Positions 17,486-25,283 of a stretch of DNA of 64,000 bases are shown one piece after another. Both the position numbers and the translations under genes were made by a program. Below the pieces are notes generated by a model, which saw only the letters and a program-made list of their open reading frames with translations, had not been told where the DNA came from and made no database searches. Within the stretch, counting starts at the first letter, position 1; the number at the start of each line of letters is the position of its first letter. The DNA is from Escherichia phage ESCO5: sequence record NC_047776.2; one strand, given 5' to 3'.

Positions 17486-17508
17486 AATAAGAAAGGGGCC
17501 GAAGCCCC
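17486..17508 (-). terminator. GGGGC-UUCG-GCCCC hairpin (terminator or processing site)
   Basis: Identical hairpin recurs at 29551-29564 and 36043-36056. Confidence 0.5.
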
Positions 17509-17517
17509 TTGAGTGGT

Positions 17518-18318
17518 TTATTTGTTTAAATGGTCTTCAACCATTTTGATAAAGCCTTCATCACTGAAGACTGTCCCTGCTTTCTCTCGGTAGACAAGCA
17601 CTCCACGTTCTTCGTAGAGAGTTTGTTCTACAAAATTCAAACCTGGGTTAACTACAACCATCTTAACCCCAATATTCAGGGCAGGGAAAAGTTCCCAATT
17701 GAAGTTGATAACTTGATTAGAGCAGCCCACAACGATAACCATGTCTTGAGCAGTTAGCGTGTCGAGGATTTGGTACATGTCGGTGTAGAACGGAGCATTT
17801 TCACCAAAAAACACCACGTTAGGTTTCACGTACTTGTAATCATCTACATCAATAGCAGCATAACCTACATCTTTGATGATTCGATTGTCTACAATCACTT
17901 CAGGCAGGAAGCCGTGAACATGCAGAACATCTTCATGAACAACACCTGCTTGTTCCAGAAGATCATCTACGTTTGTTGTGATGTTGATAACACGTTCACA
18001 ACCGTACTCTTGGAACCATTCCGCGATCTGGTAATGCGCAGCGTTAGGAGACACGCTATCCATCTCTACGCGACGTTTATTGTAGAAGTCGTGAGTTTTA
18101 CGGTAGAGGTTGTATCCCTCTGCATCTAATCCGCCAACAGCCCCAGGAACACACTGTTCTTGTTGGTATCCAGCACGGAAGTTGAAAATGTCGCATACTT
18201 CAGAGAGGTCATATTCGTCCCACAAAGCTTTACCGCTTGTGGTATCGGTGCGGAAAGTACGTACACCACTATCGGCGCTTAGACCAGCGCCGCTGATCAC
18301 TATTAATCGTCTTGGCAT
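17518..18318 (-). CDS. Sir2-family NAD-dependent deacetylase / ADP-ribosyltransferase-like protein
   Basis: GAGLSADSGVRTFR, TTNVDDL, HG and FFGE motifs typical of sirtuins. Confidence 0.6.
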   Translation of the reverse strand: MPRRLIVISGAGLSADSGVRTFRTDTTSGKALWDEYDLSEVCDIFNFRAGYQQEQCVPGAVGGLDAEGYNLYRKTHDFYNKRRVEMDSVSPNAAHYQIAEWFQEYGCERVINITTNVDDLLEQAGVVHEDVLHVHGFLPEVIVDNRIIKDVGYAAIDVDDYKYVKPNVVFFGENAPFYTDMYQILDTLTAQDMVIVVGCSNQVINFNWELFPALNIGVKMVVVNPGLNFVEQTLYEERGVLVYREKAGTVFSDEGFIKMVEDHLNK

Positions 18319-18803
18319 TCTTCCTCCTCATAATCATCATAATCTTCGTCATCCAAATCGTACACCTCGTCTTGAGAATAACTCACTTCAAAGTAAATAT
18401 CAAACTCTGCAAACAAACGTAGAATGTTGGACATGCTGTAATAGTTATCATAAGCTTCCTCTGCTTCATAGTAGAGGCGTAGCAAACGTTCAGCTTCTTC
18501 ATCTTCTACCCATTTATGATCGACATAGACAGAAGCAGCGTAGGTATTGTAGGCTTGTTCCCGACTATCGACAAGATTTCGGCTCAACAGTTCAGGGAAG
18601 TCCTTATAATTTACATTCAGTCTTCCGCATAACCACAAAGCAATATCATGCCAATCTGCATCCATACCACTAAAGCAACTTGCTTCTTCTCCAAAAGAAG
18701 CTTCTCCTAAATCGCCACTAATACGAACAACATTAGATGAATTATAGCCACACGTTTCACAATCAGAGTAACTATTATGCACATTGATATTTACTTGAAA
18801 CAT
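18303..18803 (-). CDS. Hypothetical protein with strongly acidic C-terminus
   Basis: ORF overlapping the Sir2-like gene by 16 nt; C-terminal D/E-rich tail. Confidence 0.45.
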   Translation of the reverse strand: MFQVNINVHNSYSDCETCGYNSSNVVRISGDLGEASFGEEASCFSGMDADWHDIALWLCGRLNVNYKDFPELLSRNLVDSREQAYNTYAASVYVDHKWVEDEEAERLLRLYYEAEEAYDNYYSMSNILRLFAEFDIYFEVSYSQDEVYDLDDEDYDDYEEEECQDD

Positions 18804-18861
18804 ATTCCCTCCTATAAAAGAAAAGCCCCCTGAAACAGGAGGCTTTGTTCAGATGTTGGCA

Positions 18862-19479
18862 CTATACCAGACTTTGTAGGTATTTGTCAAGGGCTTCTTG
18901 ATCACCTTGACAAACATAGCAACGGAAGTCTTGAGCAGAAGGTTCTTTGTCCTCGTCCCAATCCCAATAAACAGTACCTTTATAACGTGAGCCTGGGAAC
19001 TCGAAATATGCTGTATGAGTAATATGATGTGGGCCACCCCAAAACTGTGTAAAAGTAAATTGAGGATACGCTGCTTTAACTGTATTCTCAAACCAAGTTT
19101 TACGATCTAATGCTTCGTTTATAAAATAAGCATGGCGTTCCATTTCATCCCAGTCTTTCCAAACGCATTTTTCATCCAGAGAAAAAACAAAATCTTCACT
19201 GTTGAATTCATCTGTATCTTCCAAAATATCATAATCATGTGCACTAGGTATCCACCATCCAGCTTCTAATAGTGCTTTCACGGGTACAAAACCTTTTTCA
19301 GCATATTGATCAAATTCTTTTACTCTACGTACAGTGCAGTATTCATCTTCACCACCAATGTCCAGTAGACAAGCACCTTTGCGTCTTGCTGCAAGACCAT
19401 GTGTATCAAAAACTACAACACTACCTTCACCATCATTACGATCTACTTGATAAGCAACTACTGGTTTTGAATTTGACAT
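18862..19479 (-). CDS. Hypothetical protein
   Basis: 205-aa ORF. Confidence 0.5.
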   Translation of the reverse strand: MSNSKPVVAYQVDRNDGEGSVVVFDTHGLAARRKGACLLDIGGEDEYCTVRRVKEFDQYAEKGFVPVKALLEAGWWIPSAHDYDILEDTDEFNSEDFVFSLDEKCVWKDWDEMERHAYFINEALDRKTWFENTVKAAYPQFTFTQFWGGPHHITHTAYFEFPGSRYKGTVYWDWDEDKEPSAQDFRCYVCQGDQEALDKYLQSLV

Positions 19480-20162
19480 TATTTCTCCTTATCTAGAAGA
19501 TTGTTAGACAAAAACACTGCACGAGCAAAACCACGTGCGGTTAGTGATCTAAGTTGTTTTGTTTTTGCACTAGCTCCGCCTAAGCTTTTCCAACCCCAGA
19601 AGCAGCCTATATGATCTACTGGTTTCTTCACTGGTTGAACAAAGCCATTCCCGTGCCAAATACAAGTTTTCTTTGTATACCCATCACGGGTAGGCATTTT
19701 AGGATGAAAGCTTCCTTCTTCTTCAAACAAATACCCACCATACTCATAAGGATCAAAGTAAAAATCGGGTTTACGCCATAAGGTTGAAAGTTTACCTACT
19801 GGGTTCTCAATCATCCAAGGAACATTGTATTTGTTACCCAAAGCTTCCACTACACGAATATTAGCTAAAGCCTCATCTAATTCCTCTGTGCTGCGTTCGT
19901 GTTTGCTACCACTACCTGCTAACATAGTGCAAGGTGGAAATCCAAAAATAATATCGGGTTTAGGTATTCCATGATCTTCAGGGTTGAATGTAGAATCTAT
20001 CCAAGCATTCACATAGGTTATGTTTGGGTGCTCCATCCTAACCTCGTATTTACCGTGGTCCCCTTCATCAGCGTTTACACAAAAACACTTGTGACCTGCT
20101 TCGGCATAACGTAACACCATGATCCCAGATCCGTCAAACATAGACAAAACTGTTTTACTCAT
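19479..20162 (-). CDS. Cytosine-C5 methyltransferase-like protein (short)
   Basis: FDGSG (motif I-like), FPPCT (PC motif IV-like) and ENPVG (ENV-like); start taken at ATG 20162 after GGAGG. Confidence 0.45.
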   Translation of the reverse strand: MSKTVLSMFDGSGIMVLRYAEAGHKCFCVNADEGDHGKYEVRMEHPNITYVNAWIDSTFNPEDHGIPKPDIIFGFPPCTMLAGSGSKHERSTEELDEALANIRVVEALGNKYNVPWMIENPVGKLSTLWRKPDFYFDPYEYGGYLFEEEGSFHPKMPTRDGYTKKTCIWHGNGFVQPVKKPVDHIGCFWGWKSLGGASAKTKQLRSLTARGFARAVFLSNNLLDKEK

Positions 20163-20568
20163 TACCCCTCCATTCAAGACAAGCCATAACTTTACGCCAA
20201 TCACTTTCTGTAAGAAAAATCTCGTTTGCTTTCTTCCACAAATCTAGATCGTGAAGGGTTGGAATACGATATGTTAGTTCACAGAATCTATGTTCTTCTT
20301 CTGTAATATAACCAAAATGCAAAGCCACATCGTGAAACCAACACCAACCATGCATCTCTCGAACAACATGATCATGTTGAGACATTATTTTATGCCGTAA
20401 ACCTAACCAACAAGGAACAGATACTTTAGTAGTCTTTAATCTGTGATCAACAGTATTAGAGTATTCAATAATAGCTGTCAATTTCAATCGTGCTTTTTCT
20501 AAATCCTCATGCGTCACTTTGAAATAACTTTCTGAAAGATATCCACACATATTAATAACCTCCTTCAA
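20155..20568 (-). CDS. Hypothetical protein
   Basis: 137-aa ORF. Confidence 0.45.
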   Translation of the reverse strand: MKEVINMCGYLSESYFKVTHEDLEKARLKLTAIIEYSNTVDHRLKTTKVSVPCWLGLRHKIMSQHDHVVREMHGWCWFHDVALHFGYITEEEHRFCELTYRIPTLHDLDLWKKANEIFLTESDWRKVMACLEWRGNE

Positions 20569-21493
20569 AAGGCTTAACTACATGTTGATTAGCTTTAAAA
20601 CGTTCAACATAGTCGTTTTCACCCATGTTTTCATATAGCTTAATAACAACATAAAAGTTTTCCCAAGCATATTCCCTAAACCAACCACTAGTGATGGATG
20701 TGCAGACTTTAGATAAAGCCATTATAAAACTTTGCTTAGGGGTTGGACCTCCGATCTCTCCACCGAAAGGAATTTGTGAACGTTCCAAAGCCAAAACACA
20801 CGCTTCTTCATAAACACCTAACAGGCGCACATGTTTTGGTTGAGCAAAAAACTTTTCTTTGCTGGTCATAACTTCACTTCCATCTTTCATATAAGATTTA
20901 TATGCTGGAGCATCCATTACTGCGATTGCTTCATGAATAGAGTCATGATCATAAACATACGGAACCTCATCACCTTTAAAGAAATCTTTACTTCTCACGT
21001 TTAAGTTTGGATGAGAGTAAGTGTATGTTTCTTTCTCACGCAACTCATAAACACTCTTAAAATTTTCTGGGATCTTTGCGCCTAGTGATCGCATGAAATG
21101 AATATCTTTCATAGTTTTAAAGAAGTGAGGACTATCCTTTTTAAAACGATGACTCATTTTAAGAAGGTAGAGCACATCTAAAGGAGCAACAACGTGTCCA
21201 GCGTAAGTTCGACGAATATCATCAGAGTCTTCACAATAACTAATCAAAGCTTCTGTGCTATCTCCTTGAGAAGCAATATCGTATTCCAAATGTGCACCAG
21301 CTATCATTTTGACATGGCCCTTGTTCCCTTTACGCTCTACAAGTTCAACAAACTCATCTTGAGAGAACATTTTTGATAATTTTTCCCATTCTTGTTCTGT
21401 ACAGAGGTAATCTAAATCTACACAAGGGCGATACAAGTCTTTTCCCATATCCATAGCATGAATTTGTAATGCACGGCTACCGATTAACACCAT
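20552..21493 (-). CDS. Hypothetical protein (313 aa)
   Basis: ORF; weak GS...DLD pattern only, no confident family assignment. Confidence 0.5.
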   Translation of the reverse strand: MVLIGSRALQIHAMDMGKDLYRPCVDLDYLCTEQEWEKLSKMFSQDEFVELVERKGNKGHVKMIAGAHLEYDIASQGDSTEALISYCEDSDDIRRTYAGHVVAPLDVLYLLKMSHRFKKDSPHFFKTMKDIHFMRSLGAKIPENFKSVYELREKETYTYSHPNLNVRSKDFFKGDEVPYVYDHDSIHEAIAVMDAPAYKSYMKDGSEVMTSKEKFFAQPKHVRLLGVYEEACVLALERSQIPFGGEIGGPTPKQSFIMALSKVCTSITSGWFREYAWENFYVVIKLYENMGENDYVERFKANQHVVKPFEGGY

Positions 21494-21551
21494 AATATTT
21501 CTCCTCTATTGGTTGATAGGTTAAGTTTATCAAGCTTCCAGATTTCTGTCA

Positions 21552-21578
21552 ATAAAAAACCCGCCGAAGCGGGTTATT
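21552..21578 (-). terminator. Rho-independent terminator (CCCGC-UUCG-GCGGG followed by U-run on the minus strand)
   Basis: Hairpin and T-run read from the sequence. Confidence 0.6.
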
Positions 21579-21583
21579 ATTTA

Positions 21584-21856
21584 CTAACACATTGAGGAAG
21601 AAGAGATCCAAACACCTCTTGTGGTTAAACCATTTTCATCCAACTCTACACCATAATCTTCACAAATAAAATCAATATAGTGATCTGCGGCTGGCGTTCC
21701 TGTAGGGTAATAAGTTTCTCCGTTACCGTAGTCACCTATCCAAGCTTGTTCCTGAAACTGTTCACAAAGTTCTTCAATTTCCTTACGAAACTTTCTTTGT
21801 GCTTGTTCCATCTCTTTAACTTTCTTTTTTATCAGTAGTTCGCCTTCAGACTCCAC
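21584..21856 (-). CDS. Small acidic protein; paralog A of a three-copy family
   Basis: Shares a C-terminal GVW(I/H)SS..C end and FICEDY/AICFEDW motif with the ORFs at 21866 and 22365. Confidence 0.5.
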   Translation of the reverse strand: MESEGELLIKKKVKEMEQAQRKFRKEIEELCEQFQEQAWIGDYGNGETYYPTGTPAADHYIDFICEDYGVELDENGLTTRGVWISSSSMC

Positions 21857-21865
21857 AATCTCTCC

Positions 21866-22084
21866 TTAACAGCCACTACTGTGCCAAACGCCTTGAGAAT
21901 TAACGACGAAACCCTCATCACCTTCACCATAACAAGAAGAGGATTGCCAATCTTCAAAACAGATTGCGTCATCTTCTAAACTAAGACCAAAACCAGCATC
22001 TTCAGCTTCTTTTGTAAGTTCGTCCACTAAAGCCATAATAGCTTGGGCTTTTTCAGTTAATTCTTCAACATTACGATAACTCAT
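21866..22084 (-). CDS. Small acidic protein; paralog B
   Basis: Start at ATG 22084 (TAATG overlap with upstream stop, SD GGAG); ends ...QGVWHSSGC. Confidence 0.5.
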   Translation of the reverse strand: MSYRNVEELTEKAQAIMALVDELTKEAEDAGFGLSLEDDAICFEDWQSSSCYGEGDEGFVVNSQGVWHSSGC

Positions 22085-22392
22085 TAGTATTTCTCCTCTG
22101 GTTGGAAAACGGAACGACAGGCCCACATAGAAGATTCTTTCAACTTAGTCTTTGCTATTGAAATTTGGTCAAGGCGGGTGGATATATTGGTAGACTCTTC
22201 CAAATCTTCACAATCATCCAGTTCAGTCCACAATTCAGACATTAGAGCATCAAAGATTAAGCCTAATCGAACTTCAGCATCTTTAATAGCATTCACTTTA
22301 CCAATTTTGTCATCGGTATGCGCCTTATAACCTTTGATATCTTCGATTCCCACTTTACCTCCTATTAACAACTTAAAGAAGATGGATGCCAA
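22084..22392 (-). CDS. Hypothetical protein (start uncertain)
   Basis: ORF between paralogs B and C; track start is TTG. Confidence 0.35.
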   Translation of the reverse strand: MASIFFKLLIGGKVGIEDIKGYKAHTDDKIGKVNAIKDAEVRLGLIFDALMSELWTELDDCEDLEESTNISTRLDQISIAKTKLKESSMWACRSVFQPEEKY

Positions 22393-22562
22393 TTTGTCCC
22401 AGTGTTTTCATTTTCATCTTCTGGATCATAATAACCACCCATCCCATATTCAGGGGAGAAACGGAAACCTTCTCCAGTCTCGTCTGCTAACTGCTCTGCT
22501 TCCGCTAAAGCATCATAAGCTGCTTTTACGGCTTCTTCTACTGTTTTAAACTTGGTCGTCAT
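22365..22562 (-). CDS. Small acidic protein; paralog C
   Basis: Strong SD AGGAGAGGAG; ends ...TNWHPSSLSC. Confidence 0.5.
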   Translation of the reverse strand: MTTKFKTVEEAVKAAYDALAEAEQLADETGEGFRFSPEYGMGGYYDPEDENENTGTNWHPSSLSC

Positions 22563-22836
22563 AAAATTTCTCCTCTCCTAAAGACATGGTGACATGAAAT
22601 GCACGATATGTAAATTCGTTGTCCGTTGTGTTTGAATAAAACTCAAATTGAACAACACCGTCTTGAGAAGACAAATACATGCCAATTTGAACTGTACCTT
22701 CTGGTACCAAGTAAGCATACTCTGGGCGTAGTGTTACATTGTAAAAATAAAGTTCCCCAACACCCATTTCATCCCAAGCTTCCCAAGCGGTAACGAAGTT
22801 ACTTTCAAAACTTGTTACTGATCCGAACTCTGCCAT
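22546..22836 (-). CDS. Hypothetical protein
   Basis: ORF with SD GAGGAGG upstream. Confidence 0.5.
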   Translation of the reverse strand: MAEFGSVTSFESNFVTAWEAWDEMGVGELYFYNVTLRPEYAYLVPEGTVQIGMYLSSQDGVVQFEFYSNTTDNEFTYRAFHVTMSLGEEKFYDDQV

Positions 22837-23327
22837 AAAACCTCCTCAATCTTGTAGTTTGACTCCATCTCCAACACATTTCCACGAACGTCTCTCCGAA
22901 GAAAGGCATAAGCTTTATTAGGTATTGTAGACTCATATTTAACCATATCTGGCACAGCAAAAGATACTACTACTCCTGCTGGGCTTCTGTCAAGAGCCTT
23001 ATTAATATTTCTAAGGATATCGTTAGCCAAGATTTCTGCCAATTCTCCAAGAACGGTTTCGGTTATATCTTTATATCCCATTAAGTATTTGTTGATATCT
23101 TTCATCTCTGTATTGTTCAGAGTATAATCCAAAGGATAGAAATTCAAAGCGGAGTCACTTTTATGTGTCCACATGAAATGCACCCGATCCGAGCAGAATC
23201 GTAACCCTCTTTGAAGAATATCTTCTACAACAGGCAGAATTTCTTTTGTCACATCATTAACCATGTTGTAATCTAAGATTTCTGCCAAGTTTGTTCTTTG
23301 TTCACCACGTTTACGTTTAGGAATCAC
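22815..23327 (-). CDS. Hypothetical protein
   Basis: 170-aa ORF. Confidence 0.5.
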   Translation of the reverse strand: MIPKRKRGEQRTNLAEILDYNMVNDVTKEILPVVEDILQRGLRFCSDRVHFMWTHKSDSALNFYPLDYTLNNTEMKDINKYLMGYKDITETVLGELAEILANDILRNINKALDRSPAGVVVSFAVPDMVKYESTIPNKAYAFLRRDVRGNVLEMESNYKIEEVLWQSSDQ

Positions 23328-23898
23328 TTGTTATTGCCCTCATTACCAAAGGTCGTAGAAAATCGTAAATCTCTTGTTTTGTTTTCCCACGAATGTTTAA
23401 ACAAGGAACATTATTGGCTTTAGCTATCTTCCAAGCCGTAGCTGTTCCACCTTTTGCATCTCCATGTTTATCAGTATTAGCACAAGCCAACAAGAAACAT
23501 GATGGAGCAGGATTCTCCAAATCTCTACCTAACACTTGATGCACATTACGTTGGTGCAATTTTCTAGCACCCTGCTTAAGCTTTTCATAGGCTGGGTGAA
23601 CATCTTTGATCCATTGCACAGAGATAGCATAGTTCATTGTATCTGGTTTTGCAAGAACAATAACATCCCCTGGAATCTGATTACCTTTGAAATTTTCCCA
23701 AGGAACATAAATCTCCTTGTTAGTAGGATTTTCAGACTCTTGGACACCTGTTTCAAAAGCAGAATCACTACCCTCTGCCTTCCCAGACCTTAATTTAAAC
23801 CCAAGGTTTGAAAGCCATTTCCCTATGGCTACCATCAAAGCCCACTCTTCTTCGGATATGTCTCTACTTCCAACTCCCGTATAGAACAGTTCTGCCAT
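23317..23898 (-). CDS. DprA/SLOG-like Rossmann-fold protein
   Basis: TGVGSR ... RSGKAEGSDSAFETG pattern resembling the DprA/Smf nucleotide-binding core; start at ATG 23898 after GAGGTGA. Confidence 0.4.
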   Translation of the reverse strand: MAELFYTGVGSRDISEEEWALMVAIGKWLSNLGFKLRSGKAEGSDSAFETGVQESENPTNKEIYVPWENFKGNQIPGDVIVLAKPDTMNYAISVQWIKDVHPAYEKLKQGARKLHQRNVHQVLGRDLENPAPSCFLLACANTDKHGDAKGGTATAWKIAKANNVPCLNIRGKTKQEIYDFLRPLVMRAITSDS

Positions 23899-23905
23899 AA
23901 TCACC

Positions 23906-24214
23906 TCAACAAGTAATTTCAAAAGGTGTATACGGTTCCGTATTTCTCATGATCCAAGGACTGCTAGGATTGCTCGGATCATAAGGACCAAAAGGTTTTA
24001 TGGTCGGTTGTGTTTCTTTCTTCTGAATCTCTTCAAAAATACGACGAAGTTCAGAATATTCTTGATCCACCATAAGATTCGGTGCATCTGATTCTACAGC
24101 TTGCAGGTTATCTTCCTTAAGAACAATCTCACGAACAAGATTAACATCTTCTGTTTCTAAGATAACTTCTTTACGGATATTACCTACACTTTGAATAATT
24201 GTAATCTTATACAT
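23906..24214 (-). CDS. Hypothetical protein
   Basis: 102-aa ORF. Confidence 0.45.
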   Translation of the reverse strand: MYKITIIQSVGNIRKEVILETEDVNLVREIVLKEDNLQAVESDAPNLMVDQEYSELRRIFEEIQKKETQPTIKPFGPYDPSNPSSPWIMRNTEPYTPFEITC

Positions 24215-24957
24215 TAATCCTCCTCAAGAGTTGAATAAAATTGAAGACCACCGTCCATATCGAAATAAGCAAATGTTAAGTTATTATTGAACACAGATCC
24301 AGTATCCATATAAACACGATTCGCATTGATAATAGGTGTTTTTACATAAGAGTGTCCATGAAACACATAATCCACACCCATCACAACAGGAAGTTTCATT
24401 CCCTCTTTAGCACAGTCTACCATATCTCTGTCCCACATAAGTGCTTCAGCAAAACGGTTTTCCTGTGTTTTTGTCATCTTCGAAATGTATTCTGGAATAT
24501 CTGTTACAGGGAGATATTCCAAAGAAGATGGATACCCACCATGAATAAACGCAAGTTTCATGCCTCTGTAGTTAACAATGAGAACAACAGGTAAATCTTC
24601 TGTCATCATTGCTAAGGCTGTAGCTCCTTCTTCACCACATTCTTCAAAGACCGTATATCCTCCATTTTGATACCAACACTCGTAGTAGCTACGATCTCCT
24701 TCCAGCATACCTTTAATCATCATGTCTTCATGATTGCCACGAATAGCGTAGCGATTGTGTTTACGAGTAAATTCTAAAACACAACGAAAGTTTTGCTTTC
24801 CACGGTCAGTAAGATCTCCTAGAGATACAACCACATCTGTATCTCGGATACCTAACTTTGCCTTTCCTTTTTCATACAAATTATAACAACCGTGTAGATC
24901 TCCAATTATAAAAAGATCTTGATCGCTTTTAACAGTAATTTCTCTGTGTATGATCAC
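24214..24957 (-). CDS. Metallophosphoesterase (Ser/Thr protein phosphatase family)
   Basis: GDLHGCY and GNHE motifs of calcineurin-like phosphoesterases. Confidence 0.7.
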   Translation of the reverse strand: MIIHREITVKSDQDLFIIGDLHGCYNLYEKGKAKLGIRDTDVVVSLGDLTDRGKQNFRCVLEFTRKHNRYAIRGNHEDMMIKGMLEGDRSYYECWYQNGGYTVFEECGEEGATALAMMTEDLPVVLIVNYRGMKLAFIHGGYPSSLEYLPVTDIPEYISKMTKTQENRFAEALMWDRDMVDCAKEGMKLPVVMGVDYVFHGHSYVKTPIINANRVYMDTGSVFNNNLTFAYFDMDGGLQFYSTLEED

Positions 24958-25283
24958 TTATCCTCCTCAAAATCTAAGAAAATAAAAATATTCACCTTTC
25001 CTTCAATCTCTTGTTCTAAAACAAGATCGGCAAATTCTGCATAAGCTTTCTCTTCAACTTTTTCAATATGTTCTGCGGCATCTTTAAAAGGTGTATCCCC
25101 ATCCACCTTTACTAATAAGAAAAGAGATCGCATTTCGACGCTTTTACTGTTACGAGGAAGGAAATCTACAGCTTCAACAATTCTCCAACCCAAATAGCCA
25201 GGGGTTTTATGAATCTCCCCTAAATACTTTTCTAAGATTTTACGACCCTCGTCGATAAGGGCTTGTTCTGTAGTAATTTCCAT
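24954..25283 (-). CDS. Hypothetical protein
   Basis: 109-aa ORF. Confidence 0.45.
   Translation of the reverse strand: MEITTEQALIDEGRKILEKYLGEIHKTPGYLGWRIVEAVDFLPRNSKSVEMRSLFLLVKVDGDTPFKDAAEHIEKVEEKAYAEFADLVLEQEIEGKVNIFIFLDFEEDK

Follow-up and report, generated by a model that had tools for sequence, protein, structure and literature searches.

Small acidic proteins of Escherichia phage ESCO5 share a near-invariant C-terminal cysteine tail and are linked at the gene level to a DUF7277-DUF7275 protein

DNA-mimic anti-restriction proteins, such as T7 Ocr, ArdA, T4 Arn, and T7 gp5.9, are small, very acidic, phage-encoded proteins found among early or counter-defense genes. In the gene clusters for ribosomally synthesized and post-translationally modified peptides (RiPPs), such as the prochlorosins and the epidermin-type peptides whose Ser...Cys-COOH tails form aminovinyl cysteine (AviCys), several small genes immediately precede a single enzyme gene; AviCys rings are formed in the register S-x-x-C-COOH. 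The carriers LysW, ThiS, and ACP present a tail to their enzymes, and the Trp-containing tail of LysW ends in EDWGE. Here, we analyzed three neighboring genes encoding small acidic proteins, designated A, B, and C, in a stretch of 64,000 nucleotides (nt) from Escherichia phage ESCO5 (NC_047776.2; this whole stretch is referred to as the window), together with the nearby gene for a presumed enzyme composed of DUF7277 and DUF7275. Their arrangement appears to resemble precursor-plus-modifying-enzyme cassettes most closely.

A sequence-only reading of the window had described A, B, and C as strongly acidic paralogs with a common W-x-S-S-x-C end. We recovered the same three open reading frames (ORFs) on the minus strand with the same C-termini, and the encoded proteins had isoelectric points (pI) of 4.05–4.16 and net charges of −10 to −13. 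The C-terminal similarity was beyond chance: among the 850 stop-to-stop ORFs of the window, a W..S..C end was found only in A, B, and C, while approximately 0.33 such ends were expected by chance (P(≥3) = 0.005, before the adjacency of A, B, and C is counted). Pairwise BLAST among the three proteins gave weak matches (E = 0.004–0.27), and neither pairwise BLAST nor phmmer was accepted alone as proof of homology, which rests on profiles. A, B, and C all matched PHROG 899, a family of unknown function, with E-values of 5.1e-14, 6e-5, and 6.1e-13, respectively, in each case on profile positions 148–221. Their paralogy is thus real despite the weak pairwise similarity. An (A/F)ICFED(W/Y) motif that had been proposed for two of the proteins was loosely present (FICEDY in A and AICFEDW in B) but was not conserved across the family. 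A core of [DE]YG-x-G-x-x-Y-Y-P, missing from that description, was common to A and C and absent from B.

The three genes are neighbors, as the earlier term "tandem" implied, but they are not strictly tandem, because a gene homologous to Acb2/Vs.4 separates B from C. The view that they are tandem diversified copies was also not entirely accurate. In the T4-like Citrobacter phage Moon, the orthologues of A, B, and C are gp142 (E = 1.6e-13), gp140 (3.9e-16), and gp141 (2e-7), respectively, and each of these pairs was far better than any within-genome pair. Since each protein has its own Moon orthologue, A, B, and C represent old, separately kept, and non-redundant subfamilies, not recent duplicates. 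A tblastn search with A retrieved 441 phage records, many of them from T4-like phages, and the same kind of array was present in RB69 between e.2 and e.3. The A-type member of RB69 (NC_004928; locus L003, 3926–4232) is split into ORF139c and ORF138c in different frames, and ORF138c still ends in GAWVSSPALC; either the gene is frameshifted or a pseudogene, or the sequence contains an error.

An exhaustive profile search of 1.84 billion representatives with a cut-off of E ≤ 1e-3, supplemented by word-indexed searches, extended the family to at least 303 clusters at 50% identity. Nearly all members were 60–150 amino acids (aa) in length, and none had a functional name. Tail statistics were calculated for 413 non-redundant members, for which the search matches were pooled with members from fetched loci. 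Cys was the exact last residue in 402 of them (97%); this near-invariance bears out the earlier suspicion that the terminal Cys is important. The tail consensus was G-W-x-[S/P/A]-S-S-x-x-Cys-COOH, with a shorter variant, W-x-S-S-x-C, as in B. In the long tail class (367 members), Trp occupied position −7, position −5 was Ser, Pro, or Ala, and Ser was found at both −4 (100%) and −3 (96%); in the short tail class (26 of the 413 members, including B), Trp occupied position −5 and Ser position −2. One or two additional internal [DE]-W-x-S-S motifs were present in many members, including B. Extra [DE]-W-x-S-S-(D/C) repeats were located in the acidic linker of P0060, P0068, P0081, P0086, P0177, and B. 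Because these internal repeats lie upstream of the tail, the W-x-S-S motif behaves like a repeatable short linear element and not only like a C-terminal cap.

The genes of this family were closely associated with the DUF7277-DUF7275 gene. When IMG/VR loci were anchored on the DUF7275 gene, 72 of 80 contained between one and six co-oriented family genes, which were located upstream of it in nearly all cases. Seven of the other eight loci had upstream ORFs that retained only an acidic stretch and the W-SS-C tail, so that the family was found in 79 of 80 loci when diverged tails were counted. In loci anchored on the small family, the DUF7275 gene was located downstream in 29 of 29. Look-ups of four diverse metagenomic family members all revealed a DUF7277/DUF7275 gene zero to three genes downstream, and the neighborhoods of these four loci differed (after gp62/regA, after gp32/NADAR, and after ribonucleotide reductase). 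Of 106 distinct loci, 105 had a single enzyme gene preceded by one to six small genes; 170 family genes were upstream and 5 downstream of the enzyme gene, the copy number was one to six per single enzyme gene, and in 16 of 89 loci, no more than 30 nt separated the last small gene from the start of the enzyme gene. Clustering of the neighbors in 92 non-redundant loci showed that the small family was the only widely conserved neighbor (79 loci). The next cluster was found in 16 loci and itself contained three family members, and clusters without family members reached at most 13 loci. No third conserved partner gene, protease, or exporter was found among the neighbors in these 92 loci.

A tblastn search with the enzyme found matches in 733 of the 50,697 phage records searched. 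Phages carrying it included RB69, many T4-like coliphages, phAPEC8-like phages, and phages of Acinetobacter, Aeromonas, Klebsiella, and Pseudomonas, and it was also present on jumbo-phage contigs. Among 185,579 species genomes, it was found on only eight contigs, all of them from metagenome-assembled genomes. The small family and the DUF7277-DUF7275 gene therefore constitute an essentially phage-restricted two-gene module, and we hold the module-level link between them with high confidence. The explanation that we favor, tentatively and at a little less than an even balance, is that A, B, and C belong to three old subfamilies of a large, phage-restricted family of acidic alpha/beta proteins, that the tail is the functional element of this family, and that they form one half of this module, with the DUF7277-DUF7275 enzyme acting on or with them as its substrates or partners.

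The structure of C was predicted, a check that had been proposed from the sequence, and AlphaFold gave a model with a predicted local distance difference test (pLDDT) score of 92. The model consists of a helix (residues 8–29) and strands at residues 33–38, 41–45, and 58–60 that form a three-stranded sheet, and the tail was modeled less confidently than the folded body. No relative of this predicted fold was found among solved structures. Scans of A, B, and C against Pfam (E ≤ 1), NCBIfam, and PADLOC yielded chance matches only (coiled-coil models for A and B; nothing in Pfam for C). Searches of the PDB with the single proteins and with a 93-sequence profile retrieved only peroxiredoxin (E > 0.02) or designed helical bundles, which are artefacts of compositional bias. 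No known domains were found in N-terminally extended family members. A match of B to the SflA lanthipeptide model (E = 0.05) was not significant. A likeness of G-W-S-S to the colicin TolB box (DGSGWSSE) was dropped, since TolB is located in the periplasm and no signal peptide is present in A, B, or C.

The sequence-only reading had regarded the proteins as DNA mimics that block restriction. According to this explanation, A, B, and C would be free-standing mimics or direct inhibitors of DNA-binding defense systems, such as type I restriction-modification, and the enzyme would be unrelated or only loosely related to them. Their pI of about 4.1 and high negative charge over 65–90 aa are compatible with this role, as are their small size, which is typical of anti-defense proteins, and their location in an early-type region beside Acb2, methyltransferase-like, and Sir2-like genes. 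However, neither the Pfam profiles, which gave no match to Ocr, ArdA, or ArdB at E ≤ 1, nor the comparison of the predicted fold with solved structures supported it. The known DNA mimics have no sequence or fold similarity to A, B, and C and are not known to need a dedicated enzyme, and they lack the terminal Cys tail and the obligate enzyme neighbor that define the A/B/C family. DNA mimicry also leaves unexplained why 97% of the members end in Cys and why a DUF7275 gene is present in approximately 99% of the loci across unrelated neighborhoods. We consider this explanation improbable. Because of the near-constant tail and the enzyme linkage, A, B, and C look like dedicated partners of the enzyme and not like free-standing DNA mimics.

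The invariant Cys at a free C-terminus could alternatively be a carrier or ligand site, on whose flexible thiol a persulfide, an acyl group, or a metal is shuttled to or from the enzyme. The lower confidence of the modeled tail relative to the body, the acidity typical of carrier proteins, the presence of several potential carriers per enzyme, and a conserved Cys264 in the enzyme would be consistent with such a role. On the other hand, carrier proteins are normally single-copy, a pathway context is lacking, and no sulfur-transfer, acyl-transfer, or metallochaperone domain was found in the module or its neighbors. LysW-type carriers, whose C-terminal tail is covalently loaded, likewise have a small acidic body and a conserved, exposed, Trp-bearing tail. 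In contrast to them, A, B, and C lack a zinc ribbon and end in a different tail; they also occur in several copies per locus, are not accompanied by genes of a biosynthetic pathway, and are restricted to phages. A carrier function is, in our estimation, the least probable of the explanations considered here.

The DUF7277-DUF7275 protein was much more conserved than the small proteins, with identities of 41–77% and approximately 34 invariant residues among 44 sequences. The residues that were invariant or at least 90% conserved in this set included G5, S6, D26, D28, E70, K112, H115, H161, H183, D184, H187, E229, E230, E237, R238, C264, and R273. The N-terminus has the pattern hhhhGSxAh...DhDhh...hEh, in which G5, S6, D26, and D28 are invariant and E70 is at least 90% conserved. 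On a motif-level reading, this GS...DxD...E arrangement may be that of minimal Pol-beta nucleotidyltransferases. The spacing between GS and DxD was 9–19 in seven aligned homologues and 19 in this phage, compared with 9–13 in the canonical motif hG[GS]-x(9-13)-Dh[DE]h, which is accompanied by a third carboxylate. Three GenBank annotators independently labeled homologues "nucleotidyltransferase". In the C-terminal part, H115, H161, H183-D184, H187, E229-E230, E237-R238, and C264 suggest a metal or catalytic site. A match to the KEN domain of RNase L (E = 0.75) was judged to be due to chance.

Distant, shorter DUF7275 homologues of 253–263 aa were observed in Vibrio phage KVP40 (L130, 3043–4100) and Gordonia phage Cucurbita (L129, 3312–5300). 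They keep the N-terminal GS..DxD pattern and are flanked by a different small acidic family (motif ...FRKNGWYQSYSGGEYDG...) without the W-SS-C tail. The small partners of the DUF7275 superfamily may differ from one phage lineage to another. In some T4-like metagenomic phages, a gene for an RlaP (PF10127) nucleotidyltransferase was located within approximately 3 kb of the DUF7275 gene, just downstream of it in L005 (7507–8496) and L092 and upstream in L073.

In the favored explanation, A, B, and C would be dedicated protein partners of the enzyme, and their Ser/Cys tail would be recognized through its free C-terminus and then covalently modified, most likely with the small proteins as substrates. 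One enzyme would thereby serve several distinct acidic proteins. The small proteins would be made early, apparently on the same transcript as the anti-CBASS (cyclic-oligonucleotide-based anti-phage signaling system) sponge Acb2, and once matured, they would act on host targets in takeover or counter-defense. We infer that the enzyme recognizes and probably modifies the tail because the tail is the only element surviving in diverged members, because it must sit at a free C-terminus, because several small proteins that evolve fast share one highly conserved enzyme, and because nothing else is conserved nearby. That the small proteins are substrates of the enzyme is a part of this explanation that we hold a little more loosely than the whole. 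The GS...DxD...E N-terminus and the invariant His/Asp/Glu/Cys set lead to two guesses at the chemistry, namely that the tail serines are nucleotidylylated or that the terminal Cys undergoes a metal-dependent reaction.

Several observations weigh against this explanation. All seven homologues scanned against Pfam contained only DUF7277 and DUF7275, even at E ≤ 10, and no NTP_transf domain was found; the enzyme had no match in NCBIfam or PADLOC, and a 44-sequence profile of it had none in the PDB. Profile alignment by hhalign gave probabilities of only 0.4% against RlaP and 0.2% against kanamycin nucleotidyltransferase (KNTase), and a single-sequence AlphaFold model of the enzyme (pLDDT 34) was unusable and was not used. 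Trp and Cys are spaced differently in the two tail classes, long and short, which makes a single rigid active-site register awkward. In this phage, a terminator-like hairpin and a promoter-like site part A from the enzyme gene, so that the two genes need not share a transcript. No publication on the small family or the enzyme was found in the searchable literature. Furthermore, co-location could equally mean regulation, inhibition, or an adaptor function.

These last possibilities define the explanation in which the small proteins are partners of the enzyme without being its substrates. As specificity adaptors, the subfamilies would all dock by the common Cys tail, each recruiting a different host target for the enzyme. 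As inhibitors or regulators, they would be antitoxin-like or would act as a "cysteine switch", with the terminal thiolate and carboxylate capping the metal site of the enzyme. The same linkage data apply here, and several old subfamilies with one tail and one enzyme, as well as fast-evolving acidic bodies with an invariant docking tail, would fit such a relation. The invariant His/Asp/Glu/Cys set of the enzyme could bind a thiolate, and the position of the small genes upstream of the enzyme gene is similar to antitoxin-toxin gene order. A pure antitoxin role, however, could be filled by a single gene and would not call for three to six conserved subfamilies. This explanation is also at odds with the near absence of the module from bacterial genomes and plasmid-like contexts, with the terminator-like and promoter-like sites between A and the enzyme gene, and with the lack of similarity to PADLOC or toxin-antitoxin families. 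An adaptor or inhibitor relation fits the same data nearly as well as the substrate relation; taking both versions together, we regard it as rather unlikely.

The favored explanation can be taken further, to a view that we rate as unlikely and as slightly less probable than the adaptor and inhibitor versions together: the module may be an unrecognized protein-tail modification system of virulent phages, possibly RiPP-like, whose product would be a modified warhead or a released small molecule directed against the host. The substrates of the DUF7277-DUF7275 protein would be several folded acidic scaffold proteins, with the reaction taking place on their Ser-Ser-x-x-Cys-COOH tails. Possible reactions would be Ser nucleotidylylation, elimination followed by formation of a thioether (lanthionine- or AviCys-like) ring, or metal-dependent Cys chemistry. 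The tail contains the S-x-x-C register of AviCys rings, and several small genes directly upstream of one enzyme gene are common to the module and RiPP clusters. The differences from RiPP clusters are, however, considerable. The enzyme has no similarity to LanB/C/M/KC/L, HFCD decarboxylases, YcaO, or radical-SAM enzymes, nor to DUF692, and no protease or exporter is conserved near the module. The part corresponding to a leader forms a well-folded domain of 60 aa, the C-terminus is conserved and not variable, and the genomes carrying the module are those of virulent T4-like, phAPEC8-like, and jumbo phages. A possible analogy also exists with GlnD-PII and MNT-HEPN, in which a Pol-beta-like motif (GS...DxD...E) and a His/Asp-rich second domain would act on a small dedicated protein. 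In this case, however, the nucleotidyltransferase profile comparisons were negative, a C-terminal tail would take the place of a loop Tyr as the acceptor, and no HEPN motif was found. Membership of the module in the RiPP, nucleotidyltransferase-pair, or LysW-type carrier families is thus not supported.

The features of the locus are listed in Table 1. The stretch at 20500–23500 is 100% identical to the corresponding region of Escherichia phage vB_EcoM_REC (OM386667, Phapecoctavirus) and shows approximately 98% identity to about 60 phAPEC8-like phages. All its genes are on the minus strand and are labeled "hypothetical" in GenBank. In the direction of transcription, the 96-aa ORF is followed by C, the Acb2/Vs.4 gene, B, A, the hairpin, the promoter-like site, and the DUF7277-DUF7275 gene. 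A strong Shine-Dalgarno sequence was read ahead of each of A, B, and C, and the GTG start of A at 21856 is the same in GenBank and in A homologues. A terminator is annotated at the matching place in phAPEC8 and also after gp140 in phage Moon. The hairpin and promoter-like site at 21524–21575 suggest that, in this phage, expression levels differ between the small genes and the enzyme gene.

Table 1. Positions of the features at the A/B/C locus in the window
Feature	Position	Strand	Remarks
Sigma-70-like promoter, TTGACA, 18 nt spacer, TAGTAT	22964–22993	−	Consensus match only; upstream of the run 96-aa ORF, C, Acb2, B, A
96-aa ORF	22546–22836	−	First in the run, ahead of C
Paralog C, 65 aa, "YGMGG" subfamily	22365–22562	−	Tail WHPSSLSC-COOH at 22368–22391
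Acb2/Vs.4 homologue, 89 aa, cyclic-oligonucleotide sponge	22084–22353	−	Between C and B; not a member of the PHROG 899 family
Paralog B, 72 aa, short-tail subfamily	21866–22084	−	Tail WHSSGC-COOH at 21869–21886; internal motif copy DWQSSSC
Paralog A, 90 aa from GTG, "DYGNGETYYP" subfamily	21584–21856	−	Tail WISSSSMC-COOH at 21587–21610
Terminator-like hairpin AACCCGC-TTCG-GCGGGTT, then TTTTTAT	21558–21575	−	Consensus match only; directly 3′ of A
Sigma-70-like promoter, TTGACA, 17 nt spacer, TAAACT, extended TG	21524–21552	−	Consensus match only, 10/12 positions; ahead of the DUF7277-DUF7275 gene
DUF7277 + DUF7275 protein, 313 aa, presumed enzyme	20552–21493	−	Pfam PF23942 (1.6e-13) and PF23940 (5.5e-75)

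The gene between C and B matched Pfam PF24729 (Acb2_Tad1_hairpin; E = 1.2e-17) and the structure of T4 Vs.4 (PDB 7UQ2; E = 5.8e-41), and Vs.4/Acb2 is an anti-CBASS sponge. A, B, and C are apparently co-transcribed with this proven counter-defense gene and are located beside it in an early-looking region. The sponges Acb2/Vs.4, Tad1, and Tad2 resemble A, B, and C in size class and in their early region, and Acb2 lies within the present array, but they have no sequence similarity to A, B, and C, and the predicted fold differs. None of A, B, and C matched PF24729 or a solved Acb2 structure; at this locus, only the gene between C and B did. No Acb2/Vs.4 gene was found among the PHROG 899 family genes in the RB69 and Moon arrays. 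An anti-defense or host-takeover role of the finished small proteins is plausible, given the early-type region and the apparent co-transcription with Acb2.

Two genes downstream of the DUF7277-DUF7275 gene, a 227-aa protein resembling C5-cytosine methyltransferases is encoded on the minus strand (19479–20162). It contains FDGSG and GFPPC motifs and weakly matched MTase_II and DruM in PADLOC (E = 1e-4), and its relatives are annotated as DNA methylases. According to the GenBank annotation of this and related phages, the minus-strand region of approximately 17500–25000 also contains genes for Sir2-like, DprA-like (23317–23898), and Ser/Thr phosphatase (24214–24957) proteins. This region looks like a block of host-takeover or counter-defense genes. 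No link of the A/B/C locus to tRNAs was found, the tRNA cluster of the window being approximately 35 kb away.

The small family and the enzyme have been catalogued only as unknowns, PHROG 899 and DUF7275/DUF7277, and are carried by phages that include the classic model RB69 and therapeutic-type phAPEC8-like phages. The module appears to consist of an enzyme with dedicated small protein partners. The occurrence of a single terminal residue in 97% of the members, together with one tied enzyme, points to a specific chemistry on the protein C-terminus. If this is true, the module would represent a new family of post-translational or peptide-modification enzymes and a new class of phage early effectors, and a function would be assigned to one of the larger "unknown" PHROGs.

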